Source of the DNA: Lama glama
Lineage: Eukaryota
Direction: 5' to 3'
Length of the DNA: 64,000 nt
NCBI GenBank assembly: GCA_028534125.1
Contig: CM052816.1
Coordinates: 21,578,001-21,642,000, forward strand
Shown here: positions 2,815 to 64,000 of the stretch, one piece after another
Layout of the letters: each line of letters opens with the position of its first letter
Numbering within the stretch: the stretch's first letter is position 1
Notes under the pieces: generated by a model
Seen by the model: only the letters and a program-made list of their open reading frames with translations
The model's database searches: none
What the model was told of the DNA's origin: nothing
Program-made: the position numbers and the translations under genes

Positions 2815-3019
2815 TCAGACGAGTTCCACCTTGGCATTGGGGTACACGGCCACCACATCGTAGCCCTCCGGCGGCTTCACGCGCGCCTTGGCATGGCTCT
2901 CACAGTAGAGCCGCTCGTCCAGAAAGAAGTAACCGCGCTGCTTGAGGTTCAGGCCGCAGTCGCTGCACATGAAGCACTCGGGGTGGTAGAGCTTGTCCCG
3001 TGCCTTGACGATGGTGCCC
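2815..3019 (-). CDS. PDLIM4: PDLIM4 exon 7 (C-terminal part of LIM domain, stop codon)
   Basis: cccatcag acceptor; encodes (V)[67 protein letters not shown]; 205 nt. Confidence 0.97.
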
Positions 3020-3157
3020 CTGATGGGAGACAGAAGAGAGCAGCGTCTGGAGCGGACAGATTTGCCAGCAGGCCCTCACCCAGGGCCTTGGGAGCAGTCA
3101 GGAGACTGCTGGAGGGGCTGGGGAAGGCGGGGAGGCACAAGGCAGGGAGGTACTCAC

Positions 3158-3275
3158 ACAATGCCGTGGCCACAGCGCGTGCACTCGGGAAGCCCCTGGA
3201 GGCCACTAAGCGGCGCGCCCAGCTTGCTGGCCGTGGGCTTGAGGTTCCTGGGGCTACCAGGCCCAGGTCGTTCCC
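3158..3275 (-). CDS. PDLIM4: PDLIM4 exon 6 (start of LIM domain)
   Basis: ctctcag acceptor and GTGAGT donor; 118 nt; encodes GERPGPGSPRNLKPTASKLGAPLSGLQGLPECTRCGHGIV. Confidence 0.96.
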
Positions 3276-3610
3276 CTGAGAGCCAGAGCACGATTGGTAT
3301 GAGCCCGGTGTGGAAGTCAGAAAAGGGAAAAACTTCACTTCAGTGGAATGTGGGGCTGGGCCCTGATTACAGAGCTACCGCCACAGAGACTGGGAAGGAG
3401 GGTGAGAGGGGTGAGGTGAGGGGCCGCGACAGGGGTGGAGTGGGAATCAGAAAGCACCTGCGCACTGAGGAGTGTGGGAACGCTCCCAGGACACGGGGAG
3501 AAGCTAATTGCCAGGAGGGGGGCCATGGGGTCGCCAAGGCATGTCTGGGGCAGGTTAGGGGGTGCCACTGGTACCTCAGGGAGTGGGAAGGCAGGTGGGT
3601 AAAGCCTTAC

Positions 3611-3774
3611 CGCCCTCGCCGGCCTCTAGTATGCCCTGCAAGTAGCGGAAGGAGCCTGACTGCTTGGGCGCCGCAGCCATGGGCTCGGCAGGCTCCTGGA
3701 GCATCCTGTACACCTCTGAACCCAGGTCGACTCCGCAGTCACGGCTCCGCGGAAGGCCTCTGGCTGGGTCGTTG
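3611..3774 (-). CDS. PDLIM4: PDLIM4 exon 5
   Basis: tctcccccag acceptor and GTAAGG donor; 164 nt; encodes SNDPARGLPRSRDCGVDLGSEVYRMLQEPAEPMAAAPKQSGSFRYLQGILEAGEG. Confidence 0.96.
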
Positions 3775-3978
3775 CTGGGGGAGAGAGACGCACGAAGGGG
3801 CAGAGTTGCAGAACCAGCCTTCACTCTGCCAGCTCAGGGGTCTGCTGGGGTTTCATGGGTCAGCTGAGACCCAAGGATCAAGTGTGAGGGGTCAGTATGG
3901 GACCTGGTGTGAGATTCGAGGGATTAGGGATTAAGAAGGGACCCAGGTACGGCTTCAAAGGCTATGCCTCTGTACTAC

Positions 3979-4160
3979 CTGTGGGGTGGAGACACATGCA
4001 GGTTGCTCATCTGGGCCAGTAAGGTAGCCTCACTGCTGCTGCCATTGTGAGGGACTGGGAGGCGAGGTGGCTGCCCGTAAGGAGATCCCAGGGCTGGTCT
4101 GCCATCTTCTGGTCCAGTCCCGGTGGCTGAGGGCCGCCTGCTGGTTGCTGGACTGCCATC
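3979..4160 (-). CDS. PDLIM4: PDLIM4 exon 4
   Basis: ctctcctag acceptor and GTAGTA donor; 182 nt; encodes DGSPATSRRPSATGTGPEDGRPALGSPYGQPPRLPVPHNGSSSEATLLAQMSNLHVSPPH; frame is continuous with both neighbouring exons. Confidence 0.93.
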
Positions 4161-7100
4161 CTAGGAGAGAGTGGGGCCTGAGGCGCTGGGAGACCCTCTG
4201 GCGTAGGGTCTCTGGCCATTCCTTGTACACCCACCCAGGCCTTCTTGGATGTTGGTTGTCTCCCCTTGTTCTGGCATCTCTGGGCTATGTTATCCAGCCA
4301 GGGAATGAATCTGTAGGGAAAGGCTGAGTTTTGAGCCCGGTTCAACCCCTGCAGAAATAAGAAATGCTCATAGAAAGTCAGACACAAAAATCTGAGTGCC
4401 TAAGACTCACCCTTGGCTCAAGAACCATGTGATGGTTCTTACTACTAGTGCCTGTGAGGAATGGTGTTGGGGAAGGACCATCCCAAGAAGCTTTTTAAGG
4501 CCAGGATTTCTGGAGCAGAGAGTGTGGCTTCCTTGCAGAGATGATCCTGGTGTCAAGCCTTCTTACCTGCCAGAATGGTGCTAGGTGCTGGATGGGCCCA
4601 GGGCTGGGAACACAAAAAAGGAACTCCTGCTCTGCAGCCAGTGAGGGTCATCAGTCATTGTGTCCCAAGGCCCTTTGGTGGGGGCAGACTGAGGTTTAAG
4701 GCTGCTATTGTGAGGTCATCTCCCCCCAGGCTGGTGTTTTTGCCCCCATCTCCTGCTTCCAGGCCAAAATGGGTGCCCTTCTGTAGACACAGCAGACGAG
4801 GGGCAGAGGCTGTGCCGTGGCTCAAGGCTCCCCACTTCGTAGCCAGCCCCTGGCTGAAACATTTGGGCCTGAATAGCCCATGGGAAGAGGGCAGTACCTT
4901 TGTGGGTGTGGATCTAAATGGGGACTAGGGATCTCCTTCCCTGCAGACTCCAGGGCCTTGTTGTCCCTAGCTTGCAGGCACACAGGCATGTACACTCTCA
5001 CAAGTACATTTACAGCCATACCTATGCATGAAGGCAACACACGTGCATCAGCCAGTCCACCTACATACACCTAATCTTACAGACACATTTACATATACTT
5101 GGAGCCAGTGCTTGTCACACTTGGGATGACCATGGTGGCCTCCATGGCTGGGACAAGGTTGGTGGCCAGAGTACCCTGCTGTTGCTGCTTTCTGCAGGCT
5201 CTGAGTGGGGTGGGAGCATGGGGAATGGGCAGACCAGCAGCTGAATAAGGGTGGTGCCCCTGCTCTCCCACCCCAACAGACAAAGGAGAAGGTCTCTCAC
5301 TGCCCAGGTGGGCCCCCATCAATGAGGCAACAGCAGCAGAAAAACCCTTATCCCCACAGGGCCCAAGAAAAGACCCTGAGAAATCCGAGCACTCTCGCAC
5401 ATGTCTGCAGGGCAGGCAGGCAGGCAGGCAGATCTGGCCTGGCCTCTAATGGGGACCAGATGGGCCATGGGCCGTGGGGGCAGGGCTGGGCCCCTTACAG
5501 AGGAGGCTTCAACAGGAAGGGGGAGTCAGGGAGAACCTGGAGAAAGGAGGCCTTCACTCACTCCCACCCAGCAGGGTGTGAGACTCTATTGCAGAGTCAT
5601 CAGAGCCACTGCCCCTCCCATGGCCACCCATGCAGCAGCCTCTCTAGGTCTGAACTCAGTGGTTAAGACACATGTGGCAACCTCAGCCTTGTTTGCATCC
5701 CAGCTCTATCAGTCACTCACTGAGTAAGTCACCTCACCTCTCTGAACCTCAGTTTCTTCGTCTGTGAAATGGAGAACATGGTTTCTATATCAAGTTCCTT
5801 GGGATAAAATGAGACAGTTGCATACAAAGCACTTACCATAGTAACTGGCACAGAGCAAGTGCTCATTGGATGAATGGCTGTCATGAGCATTCCTGAGCCC
5901 CTATTCCTGCATTTTCCCTCTTCAGGTGTGTAGTGGTACACCTAGTACCATGTGCTCCTTGTGTCTGAGTACCTGCCAGCTGCTGATTTGATTGTTGAAG
6001 CCTCAGTGTGTTCGTCAGCAGAATGAGGGTAACTGTCAGCTTGTTCATCAGCTCCCACATGACTATAGTCAGAATCTAGGACACTCCCACAGAGATGGGC
6101 ACCAAATCCAGGTGAGCAGGTGACAGCTCCCAAAGGCTGAGCTCCAACTCTCTGCTGGCCTGGAGAGGACAGGCTGAGCCTGCACTGCCTGCTCCACCTG
6201 GCTTGCCTTAACCCATCACCTGGTTCTCAGCTCAGATGCCACTCTCTTCAGGAAAACTTTCCTGATCACCCTCCTTCCTCCATTCTGGGCTGTGTTCCCA
6301 CATAAGGCCCGACAGAAGGAGTCTCCTATGACCCTATATGGAAGGTGGGCCTGAAGCCCCATTTGGCACACATCTTACTTGGTGGGGAGTGCCAGGGTAC
6401 TTTGTGCTGGTATAAAGGCCAGCTGTGGTTCTCACCTCCTCCAATGACTCTAGCTGGGCCCATCCCCCTCCTGTATGCAGGCAGAGGATGGGAGCAGTAT
6501 GGGGACAATGGGCCCTGTGTCTGTGTTACTGAGGACACGGCCCTACAGGGGCTGGATGGGGGTGTTTCTGTCACCACCCATGGAGCTCATCACCTTTTAA
6601 GTACAAAAGGGGGACAGCAGCTGAGGGGCTGCCCTGTTGCTTGTGGAAAATTCCTCCACTTCCAGCCTGAGCCACCAGCAGCCTGATCCTCCAGGAGGTC
6701 AATGAGGGCAAGTGTGAGGGCAGGGGGAGGTGCTCTCTAGGCCCCAGCCCCCCCAGGCCCACTGCCCCAGAGCCTCTCCTGGAGGACTCAGCAGACCTGA
6801 GCTTCAAATTCCAAAGCTCAGGCTCCCTTGTCCTATCCATCTGGGCACTCGTACATGAAAACTAGGACTCACACATGAGCTGGAAGCCTGCGCTCTGTTG
6901 CTCCCATCTGTCTGGACCATGCCAAGCCTGGTCAACTTGTCTATGTCCCCCAGACCCCATCCCCATGGGCTACCAGAATAAGCTTCCAAGACACAGTTGT
7001 GGCCACAAATCTCTGCAAGAACAGCTGAGGTCCTGTGTAGAGGAAACTGAGGGCCTCTTTGTGGCCCTACCCCATTGTCTCCACCCTCACCTCTGCCTCT

Positions 7101-8358
7101 CACCCCCTGGGACTTCTCTTTCCTCTGAACCTATGGTGCACAATTTCACCTCTGGGCTTGTGTGTGCTTCCTGGTATACTTTATCTCTCTATGCCCCTTT
7201 GCCTGCCTTATTATTTCCAGGCCTTCAGGTCTTGGTTTGGATATCCTCTCCTCTAGGAAGCCCTCTCTGACTCCTTGGTTGAATCATTTGCCTAATCTAG
7301 ACTCCTTTGACCCCTGGCTTCTGCCATCTCAGAACTGCTAAGTGCCTCTCACCTTCCAGAGCAGGCCCTCCTTGCATGTGATAAGCACCTGGCCTCAGGG
7401 GTGCCAGCAAAGGCAAATAGGGAACAAATTTCAGAGCAAGATGGGAATTAGGGTAGATGGCAAGGGAGAGGCCATAGCAGATCCTTCCCTCTCATATAGC
7501 GAAGACTCCATGAGAGAGAGTGGACACAAGTAGGCCCAGGAAGCCATGGTCCCACATGCTGGGTCCCAAGTTCTGGCTCCATCACAGACCATTTGTCCTT
7601 GCCCCCACTTTGTGGACCAGAGATACTGAGTTTACTCTGGATACCTCAGCATGCCCACTTGGCTATCTCTCAAGCCCATGGCAAAATGAGGCCCTAAAGC
7701 AGCCTGGCCCCCATCATGCTCCTTGAGGACAGCACTGTAGCTGTGACTCCTGTCATATACAGACTGAGCAGGCAGGACAGCAGCCAGAGGTCTGCTAGCT
7801 GCAATCACAGGATGGCCAGGAGAAAACTTTAACCTTGGATAAGGCAAGATAGTGCCTTATATTATAAGGTTGGCTCTGGCCACCTAGGTTCCCAAGGCTA
7901 AGATGTGACAAAAGAGTGTCCCGTAGCCTAAGACCACCACAGCCTATGGTTGCCCCCCAATCCACCCACAAGCTTGGTGAGCTTGCCCCCACCCGTACCC
8001 ACAAGCCTGATGGCTTCCTACTGGTTGGCATCACTGGGCAACAGAGTGAAACCCAGCTGGGTGGGTACTAGCCCTGGGCCAAGGCTAGCCCAGTCCCCGC
8101 TCACCACAGGCACCTGTGTCCCAGAATCCAGGACTTCTGGAGTACAGACAGAGCCCCCAGCAGGTACATATCACCTGGGAGCACTGGATGGGGCATGGGC
8201 ATTGCCCAGAGAAGCTTTCAGTTTCAATCTCTGGCCTGGGCATCTGGGAGCCACAGTGAGGACATCCAATGCAGTTAAACCTGTGGACTAGGCCTGGCCC
8301 CTTTGCCCTGAGCTTGCTCTGAGCCAGGCCAAGCCAGACAGGTGGTATCTGTACATAC

Positions 8359-8440
8359 CTGGACCTCAGGGTCGATGTGGCTCCTGTGTGCATGAGCCTT
8401 GCCGTCCTCTGGGGTACTGGGCCAACTCCTGCCTTCAGGC
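8359..8440 (-). CDS. PDLIM4: PDLIM4 exon 3
   Basis: ctgtcacag acceptor and GTATGT donor; 82 nt; encodes (R)PEGRSWPSTPEDGKAHAHRSHIDPEVQ. Confidence 0.94.
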
Positions 8441-11400
8441 CTGTGACAGGAATTAGGATGGTCAGAAATCTCTGCTTACTAGCCCACCATGCCTGGAAAC
8501 TAGGACCAAGAGGGTCCTGGGGTCTGGGCCCAGGGCCACCCAGGACCAGGCTTCGTAACTGCATGAATAAGGATACCGCCCAACTCCTTCCTCTGCACTA
8601 GAGTGGTGGCTGTTGCGGCAAGGAGACACAACTCTAGATCTGCCACCCGCCTGGTGAGGGCTGTGCATCTCTTCCCCACCTGCTGCTCCTTCCCTCTCTG
8701 GTCTGGCTTCTAGAGAGGATTCAGCAGAATCCCTGCAGCTTCCCCACTCTTCCACCCTCTCTGTGGCCTACGGAAGCTCCGCATAAAGAGGGCCCAGCTC
8801 ACGGCAGGACAAGCCAGGCCTTACACACTGATAAGCTAGAAGCCCATCCACTCATCCCTCTTCCATCCACCATCTCTGGCCGGGCCTGCGAGTCAGGCAT
8901 CTGTGGGCTCCGAGGGAGGTGGAATGGAGGCTCTGAGCGGTGCGCCTCCCCTCCTGCTGCTGCCGGCAGAGTCATCACCAGTGTCTGCCCAGCCCAGATG
9001 GGAAGCAGGCCATTAGGAAATTCCTGCTTCGCCATAGAAACCAAAAGCCAAACACCACTCAGGAGGGAGAAAAACATCATAAACCTGCCATAAGCAGGGC
9101 AGGCGGGGCCAAGAGGCTACAGGCCTGGGGCCCCGTCCTGCCACTGAGTAGTCCTGTGAGAAGGCAGGCCAGGAGGGTGCGTGGTCCCTGGATTGGCGGG
9201 TGGGTGTGAGTGAGACTGGTTAGACCAAAGGGGAATAATGTCCCCACTCTACCCCAAAGGGCTTCCTGGGTCTTCTTGGGGTCTCACCACTTCACTAGCA
9301 GCTCAACCCTGCTCCTCTCCACCACTCAGCAGAGGATTTTAACAATCTTACTACACCTGTAGGCCACACTCACTATGCAGTTCCTCACCCTTGCCCATTC
9401 CTTGGTCCCCTGCAGGCTATCCCTCTCCTCTACAGCCTTCTGGAGGCCTGTGGTACTATGGCTCTGCTGTCCCACCCCTACTGGCATCTGGTTCCAGCCC
9501 CCTCAGCCAGGCTCCCAAGTGATTGCCCTAACTTAAAGCTCTAACTGCGGCCTCTATCCACCCAGAACTCTTCTGGGATAAACCTAGGACACCTCATGTA
9601 GCTATCTGGCCTTATACTTCCTTGAAGTTCTGCCCAAAAGGAAAGTACAAGGTCAGAGGGTACAAAGTACCTAGAGCCATGAGAGTGGCCCAAGGCATCA
9701 GATCAGAATGAAGGGCTTATTCACGAGTCAACCTGTACCCCTAGGTTTCCACTTCAGGATGGGCAGGTGGCTCCAACTGCCATCTTGAAGCCCACCAAAG
9801 GGTAGGATGTACAGATGCATCTTGTGCCACATGTAGTGGGTGACAGGGACCCCACCACAGGCCCCAGGGTTGGAGTTGATGCCAGGAAGGTCCTGGGCCT
9901 ACAGAACATGCCCAGAAATTGTGGGTTAGCTTGGATTGCTGGATACCTGGCTTTGAGTTCCAGACAAAGTACGTGTGCCAGGGAAGCTGGGCCTTTACTT
10001 CACTTTTCATCCTGAGAAGAAGTCTGTGGAGGATTAGAGCTCTTTGTACGCAGGTAGGGAAGCTGGCCTGGGCAGAGCTCTGGGGGTGCTGACACAGAGT
10101 ACCTCCCTCCAACTAGCTTACCAGGCTTCCATAGAGACCATGGTGTGGGGTGGTCTTTGGGGCCCAGGCATAAGTCCTGGCATAGCATGCAGGATGTAGA
10201 GCAGGGTCAGAGGCCTTGCAGTTGAGAAGGTACCCAAGAGAAGAGATGCTGGCCCAGAAGGTCAAGGTGCCCTTGTGTCTTGATCCCCTAGAATCTGCAT
10301 GTGTGAGAATTAGGGATAGGGGCCTGGAGGACAGGACCCCAGTTTTCATCCTGACTGAGCAGTCCTTGTATGTCATCATCACTCAATCCCAGATCACAAA
10401 ACAGTCCCTATTTTGAAGTTGAGGAAGCTAAGGGCTCTGAGATTAAATTACTCACGGGAGGACAACACAGTTCTCTAGTGCAGAGCTGGGATTAGAACCC
10501 AGATCTGATAGGAAAGAATGAGCTTCTCACCTGCTCCATGGCCAGGCAACATTTGGGGGCCAAAACAACCCGAGTGGAACAGGTCAGTGGGCCCTTGGCT
10601 CCGTCCATGCCTGGCTTGGAACAAATGACCAGGAAAGGAAGGAAGGAAGGGGGACCTCCACCCTACCCCCACCACCCTCCCATGACATCATTCTCCCTGC
10701 AGATCTCCTGACTCAGGGCCCCTGTGAACCTCCCCTGCCCTCTGCCCCACTACTACCAGGGCTTCCCTTGTTCAGCCACGCAAAGTCAAGGCTGGAGGTG
10801 AGTCAGGGCCCAGGAACCAGGCCAAGCTGGGTGGACCCAGAGGCTGCTCGTGGGCAGAGCAGTGCTGATGTTTCCCCAGCCAGCTTATACCTGTCTCAGA
10901 GAGAGTGATGAATGTGATTCTGCTTTATGGAAAAGGAAGCCCAGGCTCATAGAGGTCATTTGGTCTACCTAAGATCGCATAGAGCCTGGAAGAGGGCCAG
11001 CTCTGCTAAACTCCCGGGCCAGGGCCTCCTCACTGTGAGCCAGGTGGAGTGTATAAGGCCTTGGACTTGCAGCTGGGCCCACTCAGCGCCGAGAGCAGAG
11101 TCAGGGGTCCTGACTCTGACCCAGACCTGGGCCAGACACAAATGCAGGCTACTTCAGAAGCCTTCCCACAGTTTAATGACTTAGAGCCATTGGATTACCT
11201 CCTGTCCTGCCGGCTCTAAGGTCTGGTTGGCCGTGCTGTGGTTTGGGGGAAGATTCGCCCACACACATCCCAGGGGGTCATGGAAAGTCCCTGTTAACAG
11301 TGAACGCGGCAGAGCTGAGCAGTTATATCTGACTTCTCTGGATCCAGGCAAGATGGGGGCAGGGATATTCCTCTGAGCCAGGACCCAGCCAATTGCCATC

Positions 11401-12193
11401 AGTCTGAGGATGGCTGAAGATGCTCCAGGTACACCTTCAATCCTGGACTATGTACAGGGCATAGACAGGGCTTTGTGACTTCCAGTCCTCCCCTTCATAC
11501 TGGGCTGTGTAACACTGCACAGTTCATGGCATCAGATTTAAGCTGGGCAGAGGCATGGGCCATACAGAGTGGGGACAGTTGAGGCAGGCAGCTGTGGTGC
11601 TGGTAGGAGTGGTCAGCAGCCAAGGAGAGGAAGTGGCATCTTTGGGAGTGAGAGAGACTCAAGGTCAAATTCTACTTCCTCATGGCCTTGTGTGTGACTC
11701 TAAGACCCCTCTAAGGTTTCGGAGCCTCAGTCATCTCATGTGTAGACTATATTAGGTTTTACCTTATCAAGTTAGTTTGAGTGTTAAACAAAATGTTAAA
11801 CAAGAAACTTCTCTGAACTGGTCATCAAGCTGGTCACTCAGGGGTGGGAAAAGGACTGAAATCGTACACCCTTCACCCTTTCCGAGGCCACCCATGGTCT
11901 TATTTCAGCCCTGACTTCGGGCTGCCTATCCCCTGCCATAAGTCCCCCAACACAGTTCCAGCCCCGAGTTAAAAGGGGGCTTCTTCTCAAGCCACCTGCA
12001 TCTCCAAACAGTGCCTGCGAAGCCCCCATAAAAGTGCTACTCCATACGACTGGGGTGCCAGGAAGCTGACGCAGAGAGGCCATGTGAGGCTCAGCTCACC
12101 CAGGATGCAGGCCACCCATCACTTTTCCTCCCCTAACCACCCTCCACCCTGCCATCATCCTGGCCCAGTCTCTCCTATATGCATAGGGCATAC

Positions 12194-12345
12194 CTGCTCA
12201 CAGAGAGTGTGAGGTGGTCATTGCAGCCCTTGATGCGGTTCTGCGCCTCCAGGTGTGTCATGAGCTCTGTGCTCTCACCATTGATGGCCTGAATCAGGTC
12301 TCCAGGGCACAGAGCAGCCAATGCAGCCTTGCTGCCAGCATGGAC
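12194..12345 (-). CDS. PDLIM4: PDLIM4 exon 2 (PDZ domain)
   Basis: tccacag acceptor and GTATGC donor; 152 nt; encodes VHAGSKAALAALCPGDLIQAINGESTELMTHLEAQNRIKGCNDHLTLSVS. Confidence 0.97.
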
Positions 12346-15300
12346 CTGTGGACGGACAAGCCAGATGGCTGGGTATTGGTCATTATGTGGCCTTGCTGCA
12401 GGCTCTGCTCTAGACCCCTTCCAACCTCAAAACCTGGCAAAGGTGGCCCTGATGCCAGCGTGACCTGTGAGTGGGCAAGCTACAGGACTGGCTGACTTCC
12501 CACATGGGCTTGCTGGAGCCTCTGCTCTAAACACTCCCAACTCCAGCACCTGGAAGTCTGGTGGGATATGAGTGCATATGAGAGGGGCTTCCTCTGGGCT
12601 GAGACAGGTGGGGTGTCACTCTTGTAGCCTGTATACATAACCCAGGTCATGCAAGGGACACATAGGGTCATGTGCTCTCAAGTATATACAGAGTGTGGAC
12701 ATGCCACATATACCCTGCACTGCCCCTTGACCTGACATTCAAACCCTTAGCAACCTTGTCTTCCTCCCTGTTTCCTCTCATCCCCAACCCCCATATTCAC
12801 CTCCACCCACTCACACTCTATCCAGACTATCCGAATGTCCAGGGGATACTCACTCACTCAGGTAAATATCTCTCACCTCCACACTTATGCAGATGCTGTT
12901 TCCTCTACCTGAAACACTCTTTCCTGACTACCAGCTTACTCCTCCTCATCCTTCAGGTCTCAGGCTCTCAGCAGAGGCCATTTCCCCTGGGAGCCTCTCC
13001 CTTGGGGTCCACAGTATCCTGTGTACCCCCTTTACCACTCTGCTTCCCTAACATTGTTAGTGCCTCACTCTGTGTCACCACCTCTCCCAGGCAAGTCAAG
13101 GGCCATCTACTTCTAGCTGCCAATCTGCATTCCCAGGTCACAATTTTACCTCCCCTTCCTCTGCAGGACAGGCACTCATGCCACCCCAGTGCCACTACTG
13201 ACCTCAGAGTGTCCACATCTGGAGACTCTAATGCCAGTTCCTTGATGTGGGCCACATGAGGGTGGGGATAGGCTCACAGGAGGCCTGAGTAAGCATCCCA
13301 GGGGAATTCTGGCAACAGGGCATTCTTTACCCTGTCCCTGGTCCCAGCACAGCCCTTGGAAAGAGACTTCAGGCACCCTCATTCTTACCCAGCCTCTCTG
13401 GTGGTACCCAGCTGTAGCTCAAGAGCTCTCAGTGACACTGTCCCTACCGGGGTGGGAGTTCCTGGAAACCTAGCCAGGCTCAGCTTAGCCAGTTCTCTGT
13501 AATGAGTAGACAACACTGAGGTGCTGGCAGCTACTTGGCTGTAGTCCTGGTGTGGGCACTGCCAAGCTGACGTGCCCTGAAATAGGCAGCACCAAGGAAT
13601 GTTCTTCTGGAGCATGATACCCTCAGCCAACCAGCCCAGCATTAATGTTCACTTATAGGACATGGCTACCTACACAGGCCTGTCCTCCTGGGGGAGGCAC
13701 ACACTTGGCACCATCCCACCCTTCCCTCAAGGTCTTGCTCCAGGTCCCCTCTCCTTCATGGATTCCTGCTCTGTGACATGGTGTGGGCCCTGTGCTTTAG
13801 TTATAACTAGCTCATGGCAACCTCTTAACCATCTAGTGAGACAGAGGCTTGTTCTCATCCCGATTTACAGATGAAGAAAGAGAGGCTTGGGGGAAGGGAC
13901 ACCTTGCCCCAGTCCCCATGCAGGAGAGGAGTCTTTTTCTTCAGGGGGGTGGCTAGCTGCTGGATGATTCAGCCAGCACAAGGGGTACATTCAGGCCCCT
14001 GTGGGTGGAGGAAGTTCTTGAAAGCAGGGGTGGCTGGGACTCTGCCAGCTCTGCTAGCTGTGCTAGTTCTGGTCAGAGAGGGCATGGGGCCAGGAAACCA
14101 TGACTCTCCCAACTGCCTTTATATGCATTGTCTCAGTAATTCTCAAGCAAGCAAGCCTATTTCCTAGATAAGGAAACTGAGGGCCAGAGAAGTGCAGAAG
14201 GACACTCATTGATAAACAGTAGAGTTAGGATTTCAATCCAGGCCCGGGTGATTTTCTAAAAAAAGGGAGTGAGGGGAAAAGAGAGTGTCCCAGGTAGAAG
14301 GATCAGCATGTATAACGGCTCATCTGGGAGTGAGAGTAAAAGCAGGCTCCTGTGGCCAAAGCATCAATGATGAGGAGAGAGTGGAAAAGATGAAATCAGA
14401 GAAGAAGCAGGGACCAGATCTGGGGGCCTTGTAGGCCCAGATGAGAAGCTGGCATTTCTCCTGGGTGGTTGGCAACCATGGAGGAGTCTAAACAGGGAAA
14501 TCATGGACAGAGCTGAATTCAGGCTGATCCTTCTGGCTGCTGAGTGCAGGTTAAACAGACTGAAGAGAGAGGGAAGCAGAGAGGTCAGCTGGGAGGCTGG
14601 GCCATGAACCAGTCCCCTCACCTACAGCAGCTACATTCCCAGCCCCTGCGTCACTCTGCCCAGCCTAGATGCTGAGGTGGGCTGAGGGCCACAAAGTCGG
14701 GTGCCATGTGGTCCTGTACAGTTGTACAGGCACCAGACAGGCCTGGCTTCCCATCCCTGCTCTGCTTCTCTGGATACATTACCTTAGCCTCTCTGAGCCT
14801 CAGTGTCCCTATTCCATAATGTGAGGCCAGAGGGAGTCCTTTCTTTTAAAGGCTGTTGTGAGGACTTCTTGAGATAATCAGAGCAAAAAGTGCTGACAGG
14901 GAGTTGGGCACAGAACTAGTGGTGCTCATTCCAAGCACCAGTTTCTGGGGACCTGGTAGCAACACCATTAGGATGGGCCTGGAATGCTGTGGATGCTGGG
15001 GCAAGGCCAGTGCTCATTACAGTCTGTGGGGAAGGGATCCTGGAAAGTGTTCTTGGGGGTTCCCTGGGGCTTTGTGGGCCAAGGTTGCCCAGCCCCAGGT
15101 CTTTCAGGCAGCCAGCCTCCTCTCTGTCTGAGTATGGCTGTCCCTACTGGGTGGGGGAAGCCCCGTAAGCATGGGAGGGGTTAGACCTTGAGCCCCCTGG
15201 GTGAGGACACTCCCACACACCGTCAGTGTCTGTAGGCCTGCCCTTGATGTACCTGCTAGGCAAGCTGTGGCCTGTGCCTCCCCAGCCCCATAAATCTCCT

Positions 15301-15692
15301 AGAATCCCACCCAAACACAGGCTCAGCCATCCTGGCTCCTCGGGCCTGAGCTGATGCTGCGTGTCTTTAGGGGACTACAGGGGTGGGGGGATTCTTCCTG
15401 GCAAACTCTTTCCCAGCCTGCCTGCCTGCCAGGGGCCTGCATCTTGATCAGCTCCAAACAAGGCTGCCACTGCTGCTGCTGCTGCTGTGACGTGTGGAGG
15501 CCTTCCCTAGGCGGACAGGCAGCCGCGTGGGCAACAGATGTCTCTGCTCCCTGCCGCCTGCGGCCGTCAGCCGCCGCCACTGAGCCTGTCAGCGGCCTCA
15601 CGCCCAGGGTGCCTGGCCTGCTGGCTGGCCTAGCACCCCCACTAGCCTGTCTTGGTGGACACACAGCATAACACACAGGCAGACACAGATAG

Positions 15693-15711
15693 GTGCGCGC
15701 ATACGCACGCG

Positions 15712-15752
<41 letters not shown>
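15693..15752. repeat. (CG/CA)-mixed plus (CA)n alternating purine-pyrimidine microsatellite
   Basis: gtgcgcgcatacgcacgcgcacgc followed by (ac)18; 60 bp of unbroken alternation. Confidence 0.95.
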
Positions 15753-15754
<2 letters not shown>

Positions 15755-16929
15755 CAGCAGGGCTCCCTCAGGGAAGTGGGAGATGAAAGACTCCCGGAGG
15801 TGTTGAAGGCCCACCTCACTCAGCCCTAGGGACCTAGTGGCCGTGGGGTGAGGGCAGATGTGGGAATCCTCCCAGGACAGCTGGGCCTGCCTGTCACCCT
15901 GGCCCCCAGAAATGGGATTCCATGATTCCATGCTCCCAAGACTTGGAAAGAAATCTCTGAAAGCACAGCCAGCTTGGTCCAACCCCAAGGCAAGAGGTAG
16001 TGGAAGGGTGAGGGAAAGTGTTCTCCGTTCCCCTGACACAGGGCCCTGAACACCAGAGCAGCCTATGTTGGTGCAAGAGATGGCTCCAGGTCCCCTCCTC
16101 TCTTCCCTTCAGACTAGGAGCCCCTAAAGGCAGGGTCTGGGTTCTCTCATCTTCCATTCTCCAGGCTGAGACCCCCAGCAGCAGAGTCTGAGTCCCCTCT
16201 TCTGGTCCTTCAAATTAAGCGACCCCAAGGCTAGGACAGGATCTTGTCTTTCCAGATTGGACACCCCCTCTGACAAGGCCCAAGTCGTCTCCTCTGCTCC
16301 TCTGTCCTCCTCAGACTAGCCACCGCCCAGGGTTGTGCCCCATCCTCTTCCTCCTCTGTCCTAAGCGTGGGGCAGTGCTTGACACTGGAACCTTGAGGAA
16401 CTGGGCTGAGGCTATCCTAGCCCCTGGTCTGTGTCTTGGGTGGTGGGGTAGGGGGAGTCTCACGACTGCATCATCAAGTCTTCCCTCCCCCTGGAAGCCA
16501 AAAATTCCTCCTGGTTGCTTCCTTTTAGGATGACTGAGGTCACGGATGAGAGACTGACCAAAACCAGAGTGGGGAAGTGGATGGATCTCTCTTTTTTCAG
16601 TTTCAGAGAGGACTCCAGACCTCCTTGGGGTCGCCCAGCACTGCTGACAGAGACCCTTGATAGAGGAAGGGGTCTCTCAGTCATTTTGCCCTAAATCTTA
16701 AGGGTGGGTTTAGTCTGAGCAGCATTTCTGGGCCTCTGTATATCTGTCCAGACCCCTGGCCCATGACTACGGTCCTTCCCTGGCCTGCTGTGAGTCCCCC
16801 CAAATTAGGCCAGCAGGGAGGCTGATGTGTGAACTCTTGAGGGGGATCCTCCCAGGGATAGGGCAGGCAGGCCCGGAGGGAGTAGGGAGGGGGTTGGAGC
16901 GGTGCTGCTCAGCCTGGAAGCCTCCTCTA

Positions 16930-17620
16930 CAGCCTGTGGGTCACCGAGGCCAACCCTTGGCCTTCGAGCTTCCGGGACGTCGGGGATTCGGGTCCCAGGT
17001 GGACCGCAAGGACGGGGTCTTAAATCCAGGACCTCCCCTCCACCCCGTGGCAGCCGGACTCACCCGCGAGATGGTGAGGGGTACGCTGAAGTCCCGGCCG
17101 CCCACCAGGCGGAAGCCCCAGGGCGAAGGGCCGCGCAGGGTCACAGAGTGGGGCATCTCAGGCCGGAGCCGCAGCCGGAGCTTGAGCCGGACACTAAGGA
17201 ACAGCCGCCGCCGCCGCCGCCGCCTGGATGCCGCGCGCCGCGCCCCGCCCCCGGCCCGCCCGCCCCTGTACCCCCCTCCGCCCGGCCCCCGCCCCCGCTC
17301 CCCGCGCGCCGGGATTGGCCCCGCGGTGGACCCGACCCTCCCACTTCGGGGGCTCTGAGGGCCCGCCCCTCAGCCCCTGCTGCCTGCAGCCCAGCACCCC
17401 CACGGGGTTCTGAGAGACCCCCGGGCTGGGAGGGCCCCGACGTCCGGAATCCTGCCTCGGCCTCCGCTTTGCCCGCCGCGGACGCAGGCTGGCTGCGGAA
17501 GCTCAAGCCTGGCCCTTTGAAGTCGCTTCTACAGGGCGGCGCCCCAGCCTGGGGGAGGACTAGGGGGCAGAAGCAGCCCAGATGGGGGATGGGGCCGCGC
17601 CTTGCCCAGAAACCTCCTCT
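16930..17620. promoter_or_regulatory. PDLIM4: PDLIM4 CpG-island promoter
   Basis: Very high GC and CpG density around exon 1; several GC boxes at 17241-17300; CCAAT box on the minus strand (attgg 17314-17318); (GCC)7 at 17204-17224. Confidence 0.9.
17064..17156 (-). CDS. PDLIM4: PDLIM4 exon 1 coding part (PDZ N-terminus)
   Basis: ATG at 17156; encodes [37 protein letters not shown] donor; 93 nt. The seven exons sum to 996 nt = 331 aa plus stop. Confidence 0.97.
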
Positions 17621-20600: not shown

Positions 20601-23600
20601 AATAAAACCTGAGGAGCCCCCATTTCAGTGTAGCCTATGTGGCCCAGCTCCAGGTCTCATGGTGTCTGACCGCTGTGGGGTCTGCTCTCCCAGAGGCCTC
20701 CTGCTCAAGGCTAGGAGCCTGGGAGTCTGTAGGATGGAGAGAAGAGCAATCTGTGGCAGGGCTGGATGGGGAGGGGCTGTGTGGACCTTCTGCAGGGCCG
20801 GGACTTGGCCCTACAGTGATAGAGAGCAAGGTGGGCCTAGGCAGGGTTTGAGGGGCTCTGGAAGGCGTGGAGGCTGCCAGGGACATAGGGCACAGGCAAC
20901 ATCCAAAAGGAAAGTCTGGGATGTTATAGCCTTTGAGGCAGGTTGAGGGCTGATGCCTCACATTTCCTGGGATGACAGGACTCAGTCAAGGAGGCAACAA
21001 ATCTGGCCTTTGAGCTGTGTTTGGTGTAGCAGAACACACAGGGGAGAGCGTGCCTGTGACAAAAGGAGTTTCCCAGCTCTAGTTTTGTGCCATCTGATCT
21101 CTCAGCAAACACTTATTGAGTGCCTGCTGTGTGTAGCCTAGACCTGATTAACTAGACTTGGAGGTATGGTGGGGACTCCCCACATTGCCACGCCTTCTCT
21201 GGGAGCTAAGAGGCTAGAGGCTCTAGAGGGAACAATTCTCTCAAGGTCCAAACAGGGACAAGGCTGATTCTGACAATTGGAGCCTAGTTACTGGCCCTGA
21301 GCCAGATTCCAGGGCAGACAGAAAAGCAGAACCAGATCTCATTAGGAAACTGAGTCCTGGGAAGGCTGAGTGACCGCCCCAAGTTCACATAGCTCCTAAG
21401 GGATTGATCTGGGGTTTAGACCCTGCGTTGGTGATGTACTGCCATGCCCCTTGCACTAGGCACTAGATGTGTCTCAGTCATATGTGCAGTCTCCAACTGC
21501 AGCCCGTCAGTCTTGCTTTGTCTCTGTTTTCACAGAGAAAACCTGTCTGCTCTGGGACCCAACAAAGGGGCTGCCAGGCAGCAGGGTTGGGGCAGGTTTA
21601 CCCAGCTGGGCCCAGGGAGGCCCCAGCCCTGAGGCCTGGGAGTGGAGGGTGTTGGAAGGAGTGGAGGAAAGCAGCAGACAGGTGGGAGAGCCAGAGGCAG
21701 CTCAGCCAAGCCCAGGCAGGGAAGTGACAGAACAGGCCGTCAGAGGTGGCAATGAGGCCCATGTGATTGAGTGCTGTGCTAATGGGGCCTCAAGACTGCT
21801 GCTTACAAGGGCACCATGGTCTCGTCCCTGCCTCAAGGACATCCCCATGTTTACTCTCCCTCCCACTTCTCATTCTGGCCAGAGGGTTCAGGCAGCCTGC
21901 CCTAGACCACCCAGCCTCTGCTCACACCAAATGCCTCAGTTCTACCTGTGGCCCCAAAATAAAAGTCCAGCCCAGGAGTTTTCAAGTTTCCAGCTTCCCC
22001 TGGTAGTTGGAGGCTTCTGTTAGCCAGCCACACCTGTCCCTGCGCAGAGAAGGTGCCTCTTTTACAAATCAGCTTCTCCAGGCAGAACAGTAGAGGGATC
22101 CGGGAGCAACTGGACTGTGTGCTTGCTCTGTTCCCTGGTCAGTCTTGGCCCTGGCCTGACTGTCATGCTCTGGCATAAGCAGGGGTGCAGGATCCGTCCC
22201 TTCTCAGCTCAGGGACAGAGACATGGCTATCAGGTGCAGGGAAGGCTCTACCACAACTGCAGGGATGACAAAGAGGAAACAGGGTGCAGCCCAGGGATCT
22301 AATTACTGGGGCTTCTGAGACACACAGCACTATTCATCTGTCAGCTTAGTACTCACTGCCTGGGCCTGGACTCCTGGTATGCCCTGCCCCAGTCCACACT
22401 TCCACAAACACTCACATTTAGCAGTGACCTAGCCAGGACATTCTGGTCTCTTGGCTGAGGACCGGCCTCCTCTTGCTGACCTCTAGAGCTGACAGTCAGG
22501 CCACTCAGAGAGAGCTGGAGACATCCAGGCCACTTCCATGTTTCTAGACTCTCAGTAAAATAATAATGGAAGAAATGTGAAAATAGTATTTTAAGAATCA
22601 TGGCATATGTTATTTACACTTTTGTGCATTTATGCAACAAATATTGTGGAGAGCGTTCTGTGTGTCAGGCACTGTTTTAGGCCAGAGTATTGAACAGGTG
22701 AATGTTGGTAACACATATACAAAATGTTCAGCCTCACTTGGAGATAACCTCAAAGATTTCAGTTCCAGGCTTCCTTGCCCTTCTTCTCAGGATGAACCTT
22801 CCCAGCCCTTGTCCCCCATAATTTTCTCACTGGGATAGATTTGGCCTCTGTCCCTTGCTCCCAAGGGGTCATAGGAACCATGATGAGATTGGTGAAGACG
22901 GCGAAGGCTTCCTCAGGAGTCCTGGGAACATAGGTCTGTCTCCAGCCTGTCTTCCCAACCCCATCCTTTCTATCTCTAATGGCCGCCCTCTCCCCTATGG
23001 CACCAGCAACTTCACTCACAGACTGGTCTTGGTGAAGTGCCCTGCCCAGTGGTGCCCAGCACTGCCAAGCGGTGCCTGTGGTGCCTCTAGTGGCTGAGTC
23101 ACAGGCTGGCAGGAACTGCTCAGGCTGACCTCACCTCCGGGTCTGGCTACAGGACACCCCAGCTGTGGCCACCTGGTGTGAGCCTGGCCGCCCATGTTGC
23201 TGGGAGAGTGTGGCAGAGCTGTGCCACCAGAATGCAGCAGATGCCAGCTGGCGCTGCGGTGTGGGAATCCAGGTGCAGGGGGCCACAGGGATTAGAGCAG
23301 GAAGAGCCAGATACAAGCTTGCAAGGGTGAAACTGGGCTGAGTCTGCTCCAGGCCCATGGGGTGAATGGGCTGGAGCAGGACCCATGAGTCAGCCTCATG
23401 TTCTGGGTGGCTATTTTTTGGCTCCCAAGAATCTTCAAAAAATCCTTTCCTACTTACTTTCCCTCCCAAGGCTTTCCCTCTTACTTACTTTCCCTCCCAA
23501 GTTCACTGTAGACCCAGACTCAGCAGTGGGAAGTGGGCAGAGCCCTCAGTGTTGGTTGGGGGGAGCTCCTCACACCCTACATCTCTTATACCCGCCCACA

Positions 23601-28600: not shown

Positions 28601-29243
28601 AATTTTAAATGCCACTGGCTGCCCATGCCATTCTACCCCTGCTGGTAGGGGGTCTGTGAAGTTCAAGCAGGAGATACTGGCTTTCCAGTGGGTGGAATGA
28701 GGCCTGCCTGGCCACCACACGCCTCCATGTGAATTAGCCATCCTCCCACCCCAGCCCTTGCTCTTTCTCTCTCCCAGATCTCCAGTCCTCCGCCTGGCTG
28801 ACTACTCGGAGAGACCCAAACCGCAGCCCCTCACCTGACCACTCAGCAGGTGAGATGCCTCTTCTGCAGTTTCTCTCAGCCCCTGGGATTCACCATCAGT
28901 TTCCTCATCTGTGTCCCTGCTCCCCCACCACAACCTCTGCAAAACAAAACAAAAACAAATCAAAAAAACCCCATAAGCTCTGTCAGGGCAGGGATTCTGT
29001 CAGACTCATGCTGTCTGTGTCCCTGGGTACTGAGGACTGGGAACAGAGTGGGTGTCAGCAAATATTTATTGACTGAACGTGGGAAGTGAGAGTGCAGAGG
29101 GTGTAGAGGCCTTGGGTTGAGTGATCTAATGTGAAAGCCCTTCTAGAGCTGAGGGGCTGGCTGCTCCTCAGTATGGCCAGCGCAGCTCAGAGACAGTCCT
29201 GAGGCTAGATAGGACACTGAGCCAGTCCCTCAAGTGTAGGCTG

Positions 29244-29336
29244 CTTCCCCAAAGTCCACTTCCTCCCTCTGGCAGGTCTTTTCTTGGTAACTTCCCCAAA
29301 GTCCACTTCCTCCCTCTGGCCAGTCTTTTCTTGGTA
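29244..29336. repeat. 47-bp tandem duplication (2 copies)
   Basis: cttccccaaagtccacttcctccctctggc(ag/ca)gtcttttcttggta at 29244 and 29291; 2 mismatches in 46 bp. Confidence 0.95.
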
Positions 29337-33754: not shown

Positions 33755-33891
33755 TTTTTTTTGTGGGGGGGGGCATGGTGGTGGTAATTAGGTTTGTTTA
33801 TTTGTTTATTTAAATGGAGGTACTGGGGATTGAACCCAGGACCTTGTGCATGCTAGGCATACACTCTACCATTGAGCTACACTCTGCCCCC
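33755..33891 (-). mobile_element. tRNA-derived SINE (camelid-type)
   Basis: Minus strand has an A box (tagctcaatggtagag), a B box (gggttcaatccc) and an (aaat/aaac)n tail; direct repeat agaccctttg at 33745-33754 and 33899-33908. Confidence 0.85.
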
Positions 33892-37490: not shown

Positions 37491-37649
37491 CAGGTCCCTA
37501 GTCTTCTTCAAGGTCTTCTCCACTGTCCCCACCCCTGATAATCCAGCTCCTGGGCCGGGTAACCCCACCCCCGGTAACCTGATGGTGGAGATGTTGGGGA
37601 GGGGGCAGTAGGAGCCCATATATACGGCAGGACCACCGAGGAAATGGGC

Positions 37650-38520
37650 TTGAGATGGGGTCCGGGGGCCGCTCCTCGTACAGCACCGGCGCCAGGATCG
37701 GGTCCTGGGCCCGTGTCCAGCCGCCCTGGGAGGAGGGCGGGCGGAGTCCCACAGGTGGGAGCGCGAGAGGGGAGGCGGGCGAGGCGTACGTGCGGCGAGG
37801 GGCGGGCGGCATGAAGGGCGCGGGCGGTCGGCGCCCGCCTGGCCCGGGGCCCGCTCCCGGCTCCCGCGCGGGCCGGCGGCCTGGGCCTTCCCGGGGGGCG
37901 CTGGCGGTGGCGACCCCCGGCCGGGGCTGTCGGGGCGCGGAGCCAGGGGCCGGGCGGGCGGGGGACGGAAGGCAGGGACGTGGCAGCGGCTCAAGCGGGC
38001 GGAGCCGGGCCGCGGCGGGAGGCGGGGCCGCCGAGGGGGGAGGCGCCGAGCGGGCCGGGTGCCGCCGCGGGAGGTTCTGGAAACGCCGGGAGCGGCGCGT
38101 GTCCCGGTGAGCGTCCTGCCCGCCCGGCCGCCGGGTCCGCCTCGGGGCTCGGGCGCGGGCCGGGGTCGCCGGGCCGAGCGTTGTGCCCGCGCGGGGCAGC
38201 GAGTTGGGCGCCGGGGGTCGCGCCGCCTGCCGCTCGCCACGCTGTCCCGGCCGCAAGCCCGCGCCCTCCGCCCAGTTTCTACAGGCGTGTGGGTTCCTGT
38301 CCCGCCGCTGCGTTCCCTCCCCGAGCTCTCGGCGGTGAGGTCAGCGGCGCCCTTCCTGCCGGTCCCCTCGGCGGCCGCGAGGGGCCGGGCGGGGCGGGGA
38401 GCTTGGCCGCTCAGCATGTCAGGCTCCCGGGAAGGGGCGGCCTGGCCCAGGGCTGCCAGAGGTTGGAGGCGGAGGCGGGGGCATCGGGCAGGCCCTGAGG
38501 GGCCGCTTAGTTTTGGAGGG
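37650..38520. promoter_or_regulatory. P4HA2: P4HA2 CpG-island promoter with hypoxia-response elements
   Basis: Dense CpG and GC boxes; TACGTGC at 37787-37793 and ACGTG at 37978-37982 (RCGTG HIF core); P4HA2 is an established HIF-1 target. Confidence 0.88.
37990..38106 (+). other. P4HA2: P4HA2 non-coding exon 1 (start approximate)
   Basis: Ends ...ggaggttctggaaacgccgggagcggcgcgtgtcccg|GTGAGC within the CpG island; resembles the human 5'UTR as I recall it; the TSS cannot be fixed from sequence. Confidence 0.65.
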
Positions 38521-47153: not shown

Positions 47154-47326
47154 TTTTTTAAACAATCTTTTAATTTTTTCTTTCACTTATTTTATTTATT
47201 CTATTTTGGGGAGAAGGTAATTTGTTTGTTTGTTTGTTTATTTATTTATTGAGGAGGTACTGGAGATTGAACCCAGGACCTCATGTATGCTAAGCATGTG
47301 TTCTACCACTTGAGCTATATCCTCCC
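47154..47326 (-). mobile_element. tRNA-derived SINE (camelid-type)
   Basis: Same family as 33755-33891 (atagctcaagtggtaga...ctgggttcaatctcc); degenerate 18-bp TSD ctgttcttccttactctt (47136-47153) and ctgctcttccccactctt (47327-47344). Confidence 0.85.
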
Positions 47327-60585: not shown

Positions 60586-60656
60586 CTTGCACGAGCCACT
60601 GTTCGTGATCCCAAGACAGGTGTCCTCACTGTCGCCAGCTACAGAGTTTCCAAAAG
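60586..60656 (+). CDS. P4HA2: P4HA2 exon 9
   Basis: 71 nt; encodes LARATVRDPKTGVLTVASYRVSK(S). Confidence 0.97.
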
Positions 60657-60889: not shown

Positions 60890-60989
60890 CTCCTGGCTGG
60901 AGGAAAATGATGACCCTGTTGTGGCTCGAGTGAATCTTCGGATGCAGTACATCACAGGGCTAACAGTAAAGACTGCAGAATTGTTGCAG
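60890..60989 (+). CDS. P4HA2: P4HA2 exon 10 (gene continues beyond the window)
   Basis: 100 nt; encodes SSWLEENDDPVVARVNLRMQYITGLTVKTAELLQ; GTATGG donor. The catalytic HxD exons are not in the window. Confidence 0.96.
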
Positions 60990-61250
60990 GTATGGTTGTG
61001 CTTCCTGGGACCCTGGAGTTGGGAAGGGAGTATTTCTAGCTAGATGGTGTCTCTGGTGCCCAGGGCCAGAGGCTTGCCCAATAAACTATATGACTGCACA
61101 ATGCTATGAATATGGAGTAACCCCACACAGGGAAGCCAGAATTAAGTCTGCCCACTGGCATTCAACAGTTAGCATTCAACAAATATTGACTGAGTATCTT
61201 CTGTGTGTCTAAGAATCATACTAGGAACTAGGGATCATTGGTGAGCATCG

Positions 61251-64000
61251 AAGGCCTGTTCATGTCTTCTTGACTGCAGAAGCTGAAATCCTGAGTTGTT
61301 CCAGGGACACCTCTAAGATCTATAAATATCTTCAGAGGTCATGGTTCTGAGTCATAGAGGTAAAGTGTTCTGTGATATGTTGGTGCAATTGAGAGGCCTG
61401 GGCTGGTTGGCTGGTGAAGGGGGAATACTCCTTTCAAAGTAGCCCCCCTTGGGACCCTGGCTTCTTACTTTTATATCAGAGGTGATTGTAAAGACATAGC
61501 AGCACCATGCTGAAAGTTTTGGGTACAGCTCTTAATATATTCTCTGGTCTGTTGAGTTCAAATCAGCACTGGCCATGCTCCTTTCTGAACATATGAACTT
61601 CTGGGTTCTGCTGTAAAGTGATGACCTGAGACATCACCACAGAAGGTTCACTGGCATTTTTCTCCAATCCTCTGAGTCTGTCTGTTTGGCCAGAGTTTGT
61701 GTCTATTTAAGGATCTCATACTTTACCTTTAGACTTGGACTTTGCGTCTGATCAACCATAGATCTCATTAGAATATTGAACTGAAGATCACTTGGAAAAA
61801 ATTCTCTGAACTTTTGCCTGGACACACCCAAGCAAATCAGTGCTCATCTCCCCTCTCCTCTCCCCATGGCTGTGTCAGCAATCAAAACCAATTTTGAAGG
61901 TTCTCCTTTATGGATTTGTATGAGGTCCACCAGAGTTTTTAGAAACGTGCTGATTATCTTACAGTCTTATGAAAATTTTATATAATTTTTTCAGCTTAAC
62001 TCAGCTAAGTGTTTCATTTGTAGGCCTAATTTTTAATTAAGTTCTTAGGCAAGCACATTAGGAGAAGACTTCTGCCACATCTCCCACTTCCCTCTCATGT
62101 GTGAGAAGAGCCATAGGACTTCATGCCCTGGGTGCATCCTTGTGGGTGTTGTGATTCATATCTTCCTGTTGTTGTTAAGACATCTGCCACTGCTTCCTGC
62201 ACATCAGAGCCAGTGTTAGGACTCTCATGGCCCTTATTGAGGACAATGGCCTGCTTGGTTGCTGATTCCAAACCCTGGACCAAGGAGCTGAGAAGAGTGG
62301 ACAGGACCTGTGCCCCTCTTGCTCTGGTGACTGGCTTCCCGGCTGTACCCTCTGTACCCTTTCTCACATGCAGCCTGAGAAGACAACAGCTTCATGCTTG
62401 GACTAGCTTCTCTGCCACAACCCTGGCTTCATCTTAACTGACCTTTTGTCATGTGGTAGTTGACGACTGAGGACTGAATGCTGCAACTCCTAGTGAAAGG
62501 GCTTTTATGGTCAGAGCTCTTCTGGAAGAGCTGGGCCACAGCTACCAGGAGGCTAAGACAGCGTTGTGGTTTGGTTTCCTTCTGTAGGAACTATCTTGGC
62601 ATTTTCTTTGCCACTGAGTGGTATTGAAAGCTTTGATCCTGCGTATTCTGGGGACAGGAACCTGGGTTTCAGTACCTGTCTCTAAATGTTCATTTTACAT
62701 TCCACACAGTGTGACATATGCCTAGGCACCAGCAATAGCCTCCTTTGCAGGGCCCCAAAGGGAGTGTTACAGGCTTCTGGAAGGGAACTAGTTCTTTTTC
62801 GGCCTGTCAACATTCTTTCATCTCTAGTTGATGTGTTTGCTATAGATCATTCGGAAGAAAGAGCAATTGTGGCTTTCTTGTGAATTGGATGAGGGCCTAT
62901 CTGATAGTGGAGGAGATGCTACAGTGCCAGAATTCTCTAAGATTGAAGACACTCCTGACTCAGTGTCTCAGCCTTCACCAAAAAAGTGATTTCTAACCAC
63001 TTTTTACCCTTCACTTTGACCTCAGTATCATAAATACCCATGTCTTTCAGCGACTGATTCTTCTACTTTTGTAATAAGAAATCTAAAAATGCAAATGAAT
63101 ACCTCCTTCCAGGAATCAGTTTTGATGTACAGTTGCTTAAAAATATGAGTCTGGAGCCTGGAGTTTGCTCATGTGGCGATCCTGATTGCTGCAAATCCAG
63201 AGGTTCCCATGACACTTGCACTATTTGGGGCTGTATTAAATAGCATAGGTACAAATCGCTTCAGCACCATGATTAATGTGAGTCCCCAAACTGTTAAAAG
63301 TTGAGCCAGCTATAACAATGCATCTTCTTTCATTACCCCCAGTAGAGAAAGTTTAAGCAGTCCATCCAGTAAGTGGGAGCGTTGGAAGGCTCTGCAGCCA
63401 TAATAGTCTCCAGCTACAAGCAGTGATCAAATTTCCCTAAGTGCATTGGCACAGTAATCACAGCCATGTTTAAAACTTTCTTAAAGTTCTCAGCTAGAGA
63501 GGGTCCAAAGAAAAGGCATTTGTAATATCACTTCATCAACTGCACTAGCATGTCTCTCCTTAGATGCATCTCCAGCACTAGAGCCATCTTCTGAGCCAGG
63601 CCTCCTGGCACTGTTGACAGGATTTCCAAGTATTTTTGGTGTGGGCCTCATGAAGATCGAAGCAGTGTATGCCAGCATATTTTCATCCACTGATTCTTCG
63701 TGTCACAATTTTTATTTTTGTGGACACTGAAAACCATGCTGCTGAAGTTCTCCACTGCATCATGTTTGATAAAGTTTTGTTTTGTTTTTTTACTCCAACA
63801 GGAATATTTTCTCTCTTGTAAAGTCCACCCTCCCTTTATCTCCCCTTCACGTCCATACGTCTCCATTATTGCTAGCTTTGCAGCATCTCTCACCTGACTG
63901 TTGGAATTGCCGAAAAGGATATACAAAACCAATTTTTTGAGTACTAATAGCCGAACCCCAAAGATGTTTATGGTTTCATTAAGACACAGAGCCATGTGTT
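61251..64000 (-). pseudogene. CLASP2: Processed (intronless) CLASP2 pseudogene, antisense in P4HA2 intron 10; runs off the window end
   Basis: Colinear minus-strand peptides match CLASP2 as I recall it: LFGNSNSQVRDAA, GNPVNSARRPGS, SNCTSKLIPGRRYSFAFLDFLLQ, SGTVASPPLSDR, SQGCGREAS, NTGSDVQEAVAD, FPSDLQFNILMRSMVDQTQSPSLKVK, MTSEDIYRS, QDFSFCSQEDMN. Many stops and frameshifts, no introns. Confidence 0.9.

Follow-up and report, generated by a model that had tools for sequence, protein, structure and literature searches.

At least 2.75 kb at the right end of the window, by which we mean the whole 64,000-nt stretch of Lama glama DNA analysed here, is occupied by a decayed, intron-free copy of CLASP2 coding sequence that lies antisense in an intron of P4HA2 and runs on beyond the last position. 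The copy is likely an ordinary processed pseudogene without function. With a rough probability of 0.6, we suggest that a spliced CLASP2 mRNA was reverse-transcribed, was inserted by L1 in an early placental ancestor, decayed neutrally and later lost its 3' third by deletion. The coordinates of all features are collected in Table 1.

CLASP2 coding sequence on the minus strand of a P4HA2 intron

A six-frame translation of the window revealed CLASP-like text on the minus strand. When we applied a frameshift-aware alignment with alpaca CLASP2 isoform X20 (P0002, XP_031542737.1) as the reference parent, positions 63995-61252 were colinear with residues 147-1194. The 872 aligned codons included 481 identical ones and were interrupted by 16 stops and 29 frameshifts; 154 residues of the parent were deleted and 28 codons were inserted, none of the insertions being longer than 7 codons. 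The alignment was monotonic with a largest step of 24 nt, and 2741 nt were present against 3141 expected, the internal deletions totalling about 400 nt. Its score was 1424, compared with 78 for the plus strand, a mean of 85 and a maximum of 108 for 20 shuffles, and a maximum of 191.5 for 40 other segments of the window. An earlier note on this DNA had described at least 2.75 kb of colinear, intronless and decayed CLASP2 sequence antisense within P4HA2, and the coordinates, the strand, the parent and the host gene were all found as it gave them.

Table 1. Positions of the CLASP2 copy, its parts and the neighbouring features in the window
Feature	Position	Strand	Basis
Likely CLASP2 processed pseudogene, codons ~146-1194	61252..64000, runs beyond window end	-	Frameshift-aware alignment and controls
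End of TOG1, aa 147-201	63830..63995	-	5NR4 match, E 5.9e-13
Stretch of aa ~205-350 with changes common to ORFs of other genomes	63430..63830	-	ORF comparison
TOG2, aa 321-538	62950..63485	-	3WOY match, E 8e-17
Ser/Arg-rich region	62260..62510	-	Alignment to parent
TOG3, aa 894-1075	61580..62060	-	3WOZ match, E 9e-21
Junction at the 3' end of the copy; alignment ends with codon 1194	61248..61270	-	Sequence read directly
Interspersed-repeat relic with TGAATG-type repeats at its end	61165..61248	- (strand of the copy)	In-window matches
P4HA2 exon 10 (ninth coding exon)	60890..60989; donor GT 60990	+	7ZSC match, E 1.7e-14
P4HA2 exon 9, 71 nt	60586..60656	+	Exon reading

The parent of the copy is CLASP2 and not CLASP1. 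A HMMER search of the whole protein library returned 28 proteins, and the best full-length match was alpaca CLASP2 isoform X20. When we searched the solved domains, the TOG1 piece scored 52 bits with CLASP2 and 30.5 bits with CLASP1, the TOG2 piece 65 and 51.4 bits, respectively, and the TOG3 piece 77.7 bits with CLASP2 and no match with CLASP1. In addition, 46 sites are diagnostic against the CLASP1 TOG2 chain P0014, and 26 of them are of the CLASP2 type and 5 of the CLASP1 type in an alignment that was itself made against CLASP2. The preference for CLASP2 that had been voiced from a first reading of the letters is therefore borne out, both by the solved domains and by the top full-length protein.

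The TOG limits in the parent, according to Pfam, are residues 50-201 for TOG1, 321-538 for TOG2 and 894-1075 for TOG3. The end of TOG1, TOG2, the Ser/Arg-rich region and TOG3 are present in the copy as had been proposed, but both SxIP motifs are destroyed (SKIP is replaced by GQLR and SRIP by SQAA). A word-index protein search that started from the TOG1 piece considered 54 candidates and gave no match, and a Pfam search with seven read-through pieces gave a single, sub-threshold TOG match (E 0.053). No tandem repeats were found inside the copy. Separately, about 70 nt at 62650-62720 (minus strand), between the matches to residues 641 and 660, fit the microexon region of the parent poorly and contain a 6-codon insertion; they could represent another exon choice or a small insertion.

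The plus strand carries nine coding exons of P4HA2 between about 46900 and 60989, and our numbering of the last one as exon 10 presumes one non-coding first exon. The end of the copy stands 262 nt from the donor GT of this exon, which agrees with the distance of about 260 bp given before. The copy is thus situated away from its parent locus, inside P4HA2 and near PDLIM4-like exons, as retrocopies are. These exons, the first and last coding exons of a gene that we presume from motifs to be PDLIM4, occupy about 2900-17170 of the minus strand and stand head to head with the island at the P4HA2 promoter. CpG islands were observed at 17001 and 37501-38500. A tRNA-Ala-derived SINE, presumably of the camelid type, occurs twice (33783-33879 and 47216-47325, minus strand, 81% alike), and ARAGORN calls one of the two copies a tRNA-Ala gene. 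A 47-nt tandem duplication with two copies 95% alike lies at 29244-29336. Searching 60990-61400 against Rfam gave a mir-84 match that, with 20.8 bits, stayed below the cut-off of 60 and was rejected as chance.

Loss of introns and of the reading frame

The exon ends of the parent were placed from several sources: an alternative first exon joins at residue 239 (P0173), genomic ORFs enter an intron after residues 288 and 315, isoforms show indels at residues 287, 839, 942 and 1022, and a gene model breaks at residues 641, 689 and 782. The copy crosses the parental intron positions at residues 239, 288, 315, 690, 782, 839, 942 and 1022 without extra DNA. At all 15 positions tested, some of which were guessed, the spacing in the window matched the spliced length to within 1 nt or fell below it. 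No retained parental intron was found at these places and the exon junctions of CLASP2 are crossed gap-free, in agreement with the earlier description of the copy as intronless. It is colinear with the spliced mRNA of its parent, as a processed pseudogene is.

These observations bear on whether the copy might be a duplicate of CLASP2 or CLASP1 made at the level of DNA, or an artefact of assembly. Fourteen runs, none recorded as RNA and carrying six organism labels, contain 95-99% of the sampled words, and nine of the 14 are not marked as a possible source. Nothing was found in favour of a duplicate or an artefact, and the lack of introns, the CLASP2-specific residues and the 14 runs together leave practically no room for either.

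The copy also carries a gap of exactly 63 nt at about 62282 (minus strand), by which residues 783-803 are gone, and the 5' edge of the gap coincides with a parental exon boundary. We take this segment of CLASP2 to be an alternative exon. The template of the copy was likely a CLASP2 isoform that skips this 63-nt exon, and the copy may record an old splice form of the gene. The 8- and 17-residue exons of other CLASP2 isoforms are likewise absent from the copy.

The mismatch was 26% (156/603) at codon position 1 and 27% (207/754) at codon position 2, where the positions were set by the residue of the parent and misplaced frameshifts may inflate the counts. The K2P distance was 0.33-0.34 under three filters, and the longest intact run was 78 codons. 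Since the 120 mammalian CLASP2 entries listed are 98-100% identical, nearly all of the change falls on the branch of the copy, and the equal divergence of positions 1 and 2 indicates that the copy has been under no protein constraint. The frame is disabled and unconstrained, again as in a processed pseudogene.

Counterparts in other genomes, age and transcription

Several observations indicate that the copy shares its ancestry with ORFs from other genomes. First, of the 52 sites at residues 249-300, 22 differ between the window and the parent, and derived residues shared with the window account for 7 of the 17 differences of the human-type ORF P0041, 5 of 23 in the dog ORF P0046, 6 of 24 in P0030 and 6 of 22 in P0015, compared with 1 of 7 in the rabbit control P0026. 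Second, a 10-codon deletion (residues 326-335) is common to the window, P0030, dog P0046 and P0023, which besides the rabbit ORF are all the other compared ORFs that span these residues, and it is absent from rabbit P0026; P0035, P0170, P0171 and P0172 align to the window across the deletion without a gap. Third, the first 12 residues of P0009 cannot be aligned to the parent, whereas 8 of them are identical to the window near residues 205-216 once the frame is shifted, which points to a shared frameshift. Finally, the five copies formed a 99/99 clade in a tree of 11 rows and 59 columns (P0001 and P0023 left out), in which fast-evolving rows can attract each other. The stem of this clade, about 0.33 changes per column, was as long as its end branches (0.14-0.42). 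Based on the shared substitutions, the shared indels and the tree, we suggest that there was one insertion before the split of human, dog and camelids and that the copy had already decayed by then.

An insertion on the placental stem would be more than 100 million years old, a date that we draw from a small sample, and we assume that the dog and human-type copies stand at the same position in P4HA2. Among the sites with a camelid bias, N228 and T579 of the copy are in the majority state, L220 and A635 being exceptions. As one insertion with indels shared across boreoeutherian mammals, the copy could serve as a deep phylogenetic marker. The rabbit control (UniRef100_A0A5F9C4U6) is likewise a decayed, intron-free copy of CLASP2 that has been modelled as a protein, but it does not have the changes that the others share, and its identity to the parent is 70%; judged from its residues, it represents an independent and younger event.

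The string NPANSARK occurs in 3 of the 120 long CLASP entries listed, all of them human. P0011 joins this string to the tail of P0041, and P0018, P0042, P0168 and P0169 join the head of P0041 to the intronic sequence downstream of the human-type exon in P0219 and P0234. Such reciprocal chimeric ORFs would tie P0009 and P0041 to human, and the five chimeras themselves are likely artefacts of short-read assembly that arose from a shared identical stretch. Three 'uncharacterized proteins' of dog and dingo in UniRef (P0016, P0045 and P0046) share a foreign N-terminus of 21 residues and diverge after the part derived from the copy, which suggests splicing of transcripts across the dog copy or faulty gene models there. 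The copy thereby accounts for spurious dog gene models and for chimeric short-read contigs with the parent exon.

An exact 30-nt pattern had no match in metagenome contigs, none of 60 and none of 90 stretches was confirmed as a related locus in viral contigs, and the ESM Atlas gave no usable match for P0030. A metagenome scan with P0009 met at least three loci among 596 stretches, two of them on long contigs, at about 51% identity over 33 residues, which we took as chance.

The human orthologue is presumably already annotated. ENSG00000224431 is presumably a processed pseudogene of CLASP2 that lies antisense in this P4HA2 intron and stops some 260 nt short of the exon, and its clone name is probably AC063976.7 or AC063976.2. 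The human-type ORF shares derived changes with the window and may belong to ENSG00000224431. The locus is probably annotated in human, the earlier hint that it was new is probably wrong, and the finding, if ENSG00000224431 is indeed the orthologue, is already known. ENSG00000224431 appears without a description in a TCGA expression table (PMC12519442), and PMC9641868 lists it in a table of human pseudogenes as developmentally dynamic in testis (R2 0.82). AC063976.2 appears without a description in an expression table (PMC8284828). Our literature search, which covered few subscription journals, found no text that describes this copy, and ENSG00000224431 is absent from the supplements of PMC4140826, PMC11017616, PMC8830042, PMC6278865 and PMC5390679.

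Here, we need to consider whether the copy was kept because an antisense CLASP2-like RNA within the P4HA2 pre-mRNA, or a sense transcript, regulates CLASP2 or P4HA2. The copy persists in several mammalian orders, and the dog and dingo UniRef models splice into its sense strand; together with the testis listing of the presumed orthologue ENSG00000224431, the dog models suggest some transcription. Part of the stretch is contained in four runs recorded as RNA, three of which have about half of the words; these runs may be DNA or pre-mRNA. Another RNA-labelled run, with just 0.06 of the words, is no evidence of transcription. Antisense siRNAs from retrocopies occur in mouse oocytes (PMC5470649). 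Against such a role, the copy shows 27% mismatch and an indel about every 60 nt, and a simple estimate, made for about 73% identity and leaving indels aside, predicts about 1.0 stretch of 21 nt along the entire copy that matches CLASP2 mRNA perfectly, so that the doubt already expressed about regulation was fair. Moreover, the end branches are long in every lineage, as under neutral decay, and persistence of intronic DNA needs no selection. Our search found no evidence for antisense regulation by the copy, and we consider retention for a regulatory function very improbable. The signs of transcription are weak, and the copy is probably not silent everywhere.

The 3' junction and the route of insertion

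The copy ends at codon 1194 of 1526, and codons 1195-1526, the 3' UTR and the poly(A) tail are missing at the 61251 end. Directly against the last CLASP2 codon, on the same strand, stands the interspersed-repeat relic, which by the consensus of such tails is likely an L2 3' tail; the boundary between the two can be placed only to within about 20 nt. Neither strand shows an A-rich cleavage site within 30 nt of the junction, and no stretch of three or more A or T occurs there. A remnant of poly(A), as left by L1 in its retrocopies, is absent from the 3' end, which is compatible with later loss, and our comparison of short direct and inverted repeats showed no terminal duplication. The relic resembles three other short repeats of the window, and with an 89-nt query its best match was marginal, being reached by 1 of 30 shuffles; when a 140-nt query across the junction was used, the relic match (60.5) lay within the shuffle range (maximum 61.5). 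The same tail motif was seen in short relics at 21100-21135 (minus), 22632-22666 (minus) and 29040-29080 (plus), and the 64-kb window holds four such relics in total. No printed consensus of the L2 tail was found in the literature searched.

It has been described that L1 is the maker of therian retrocopies and that truncation normally affects the 5' end of L1 copies and leaves the 3' end intact (PMC5470649). Since the present copy is truncated at its 3' end, a second event must be assumed if L1 made it. In the sequence of events that we propose, L1 proteins would have reverse-transcribed a spliced CLASP2 mRNA and inserted it antisense in the P4HA2 intron of an early placental ancestor, before the human, dog and camelid lineages split. 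The copy would have been dead on arrival and then decayed neutrally, and a later deletion would have taken its 3' third and placed codon 1194 next to an old L2-like relic. Ever since, it would have travelled as a passenger in every P4HA2 pre-mRNA and been removed by splicing together with the intron. We prefer a later deletion onto an old relic because relics of this kind are common and because pieces drop out of old copies, of which the internal deletions of this one are an example. What speaks against an L1 origin is that neither hallmark, poly(A) or target-site duplication, is visible; the 5' end lies beyond the window.

Alternatively, the abutting relic could be the trace of the insertion itself, if an L2 reverse transcriptase had primed on an L2 3' tail and, after copying some 80 nt, had switched templates to spliced CLASP2 mRNA at codon 1194 and so produced a chimera. 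L2 was still active on the placental stem, and the copy is old enough to fall into that time. The relic lies on the strand of the copy, adjoins its last codon and ends in TGAATG-type repeats, and the junction lacks an A-rich L1 cleavage site. Such chimeras have a precedent in platypus, where U6 RNA stands upstream of a short L2 piece with a TGAA tail, flanked by duplications of 1-9 bp (PMC4476161). The same source states that the template switching involved mostly U6 and U6atac and that processed pseudogenes are rare where L2 dominates. Furthermore, the in-window match of the relic is marginal as given above, the L2 label of the relic is tentative, four relics in 64 kb make chance adjacency after a deletion plausible, and the junction is blurred. 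A chimera of this kind seems to us unlikely; in it, the now extinct L2 machinery would have copied a spliced CLASP2 mRNA over more than 2.7 kb, and the product would have been fixed in P4HA2 on the placental stem and passed on to humans, dogs and camelids. If it were true, L2 and not only L1 would have made protein-coding retrocopies in our own ancestry.

Another possibility, which we hold to be still less probable than the L2 chimera, is that we see one inverted arm left by twin priming in an L1-type insertion, or else a copy that was primed internally and landed within an older L2; the 3' arm with its poly(A), or the rest of the L2, would then lie beyond position 64000. The codons that follow 1194 in the parent P0002 (LKRDSKKD) are A-rich. 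An end in the middle of the coding sequence that faces the flank is the expected outcome of twin priming (PMC4476161, Fig. 1 legend). On the other side, an A-rich cleavage site is missing within 30 nt of the junction on both strands, and an inverted arm of at least 2.7 kb would be long. The human P4HA2 intron probably also leaves too little room for a second arm of 3 kb.

Insertion of a spliced mRNA by L1 followed by a deletion thus remains our preferred account. A processed pseudogene as such matters little, as mammals carry thousands of them; a primary junction with the relic would matter more, since mRNA retrocopies of placental mammals are attributed to L1. When compared with known systems, the copy resembles L1-made mammalian retrocopies (PMC5470649) in being an intron-free copy of a spliced mRNA at a foreign locus, disabled and unconstrained; it differs from them in the lack of a visible poly(A) tail and target-site duplication, in its truncation at the 3' rather than the 5' end, and in its great age. 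With the U6-L2 chimeras of platypus and lizard (PMC4476161), it shares an RNA copy directly upstream of a same-strand L2 3' piece, if the relic is one, with a TGAA-type tail, whereas the partner here is a multi-kilobase mRNA, the host is a placental mammal, and no flanking duplication was seen.
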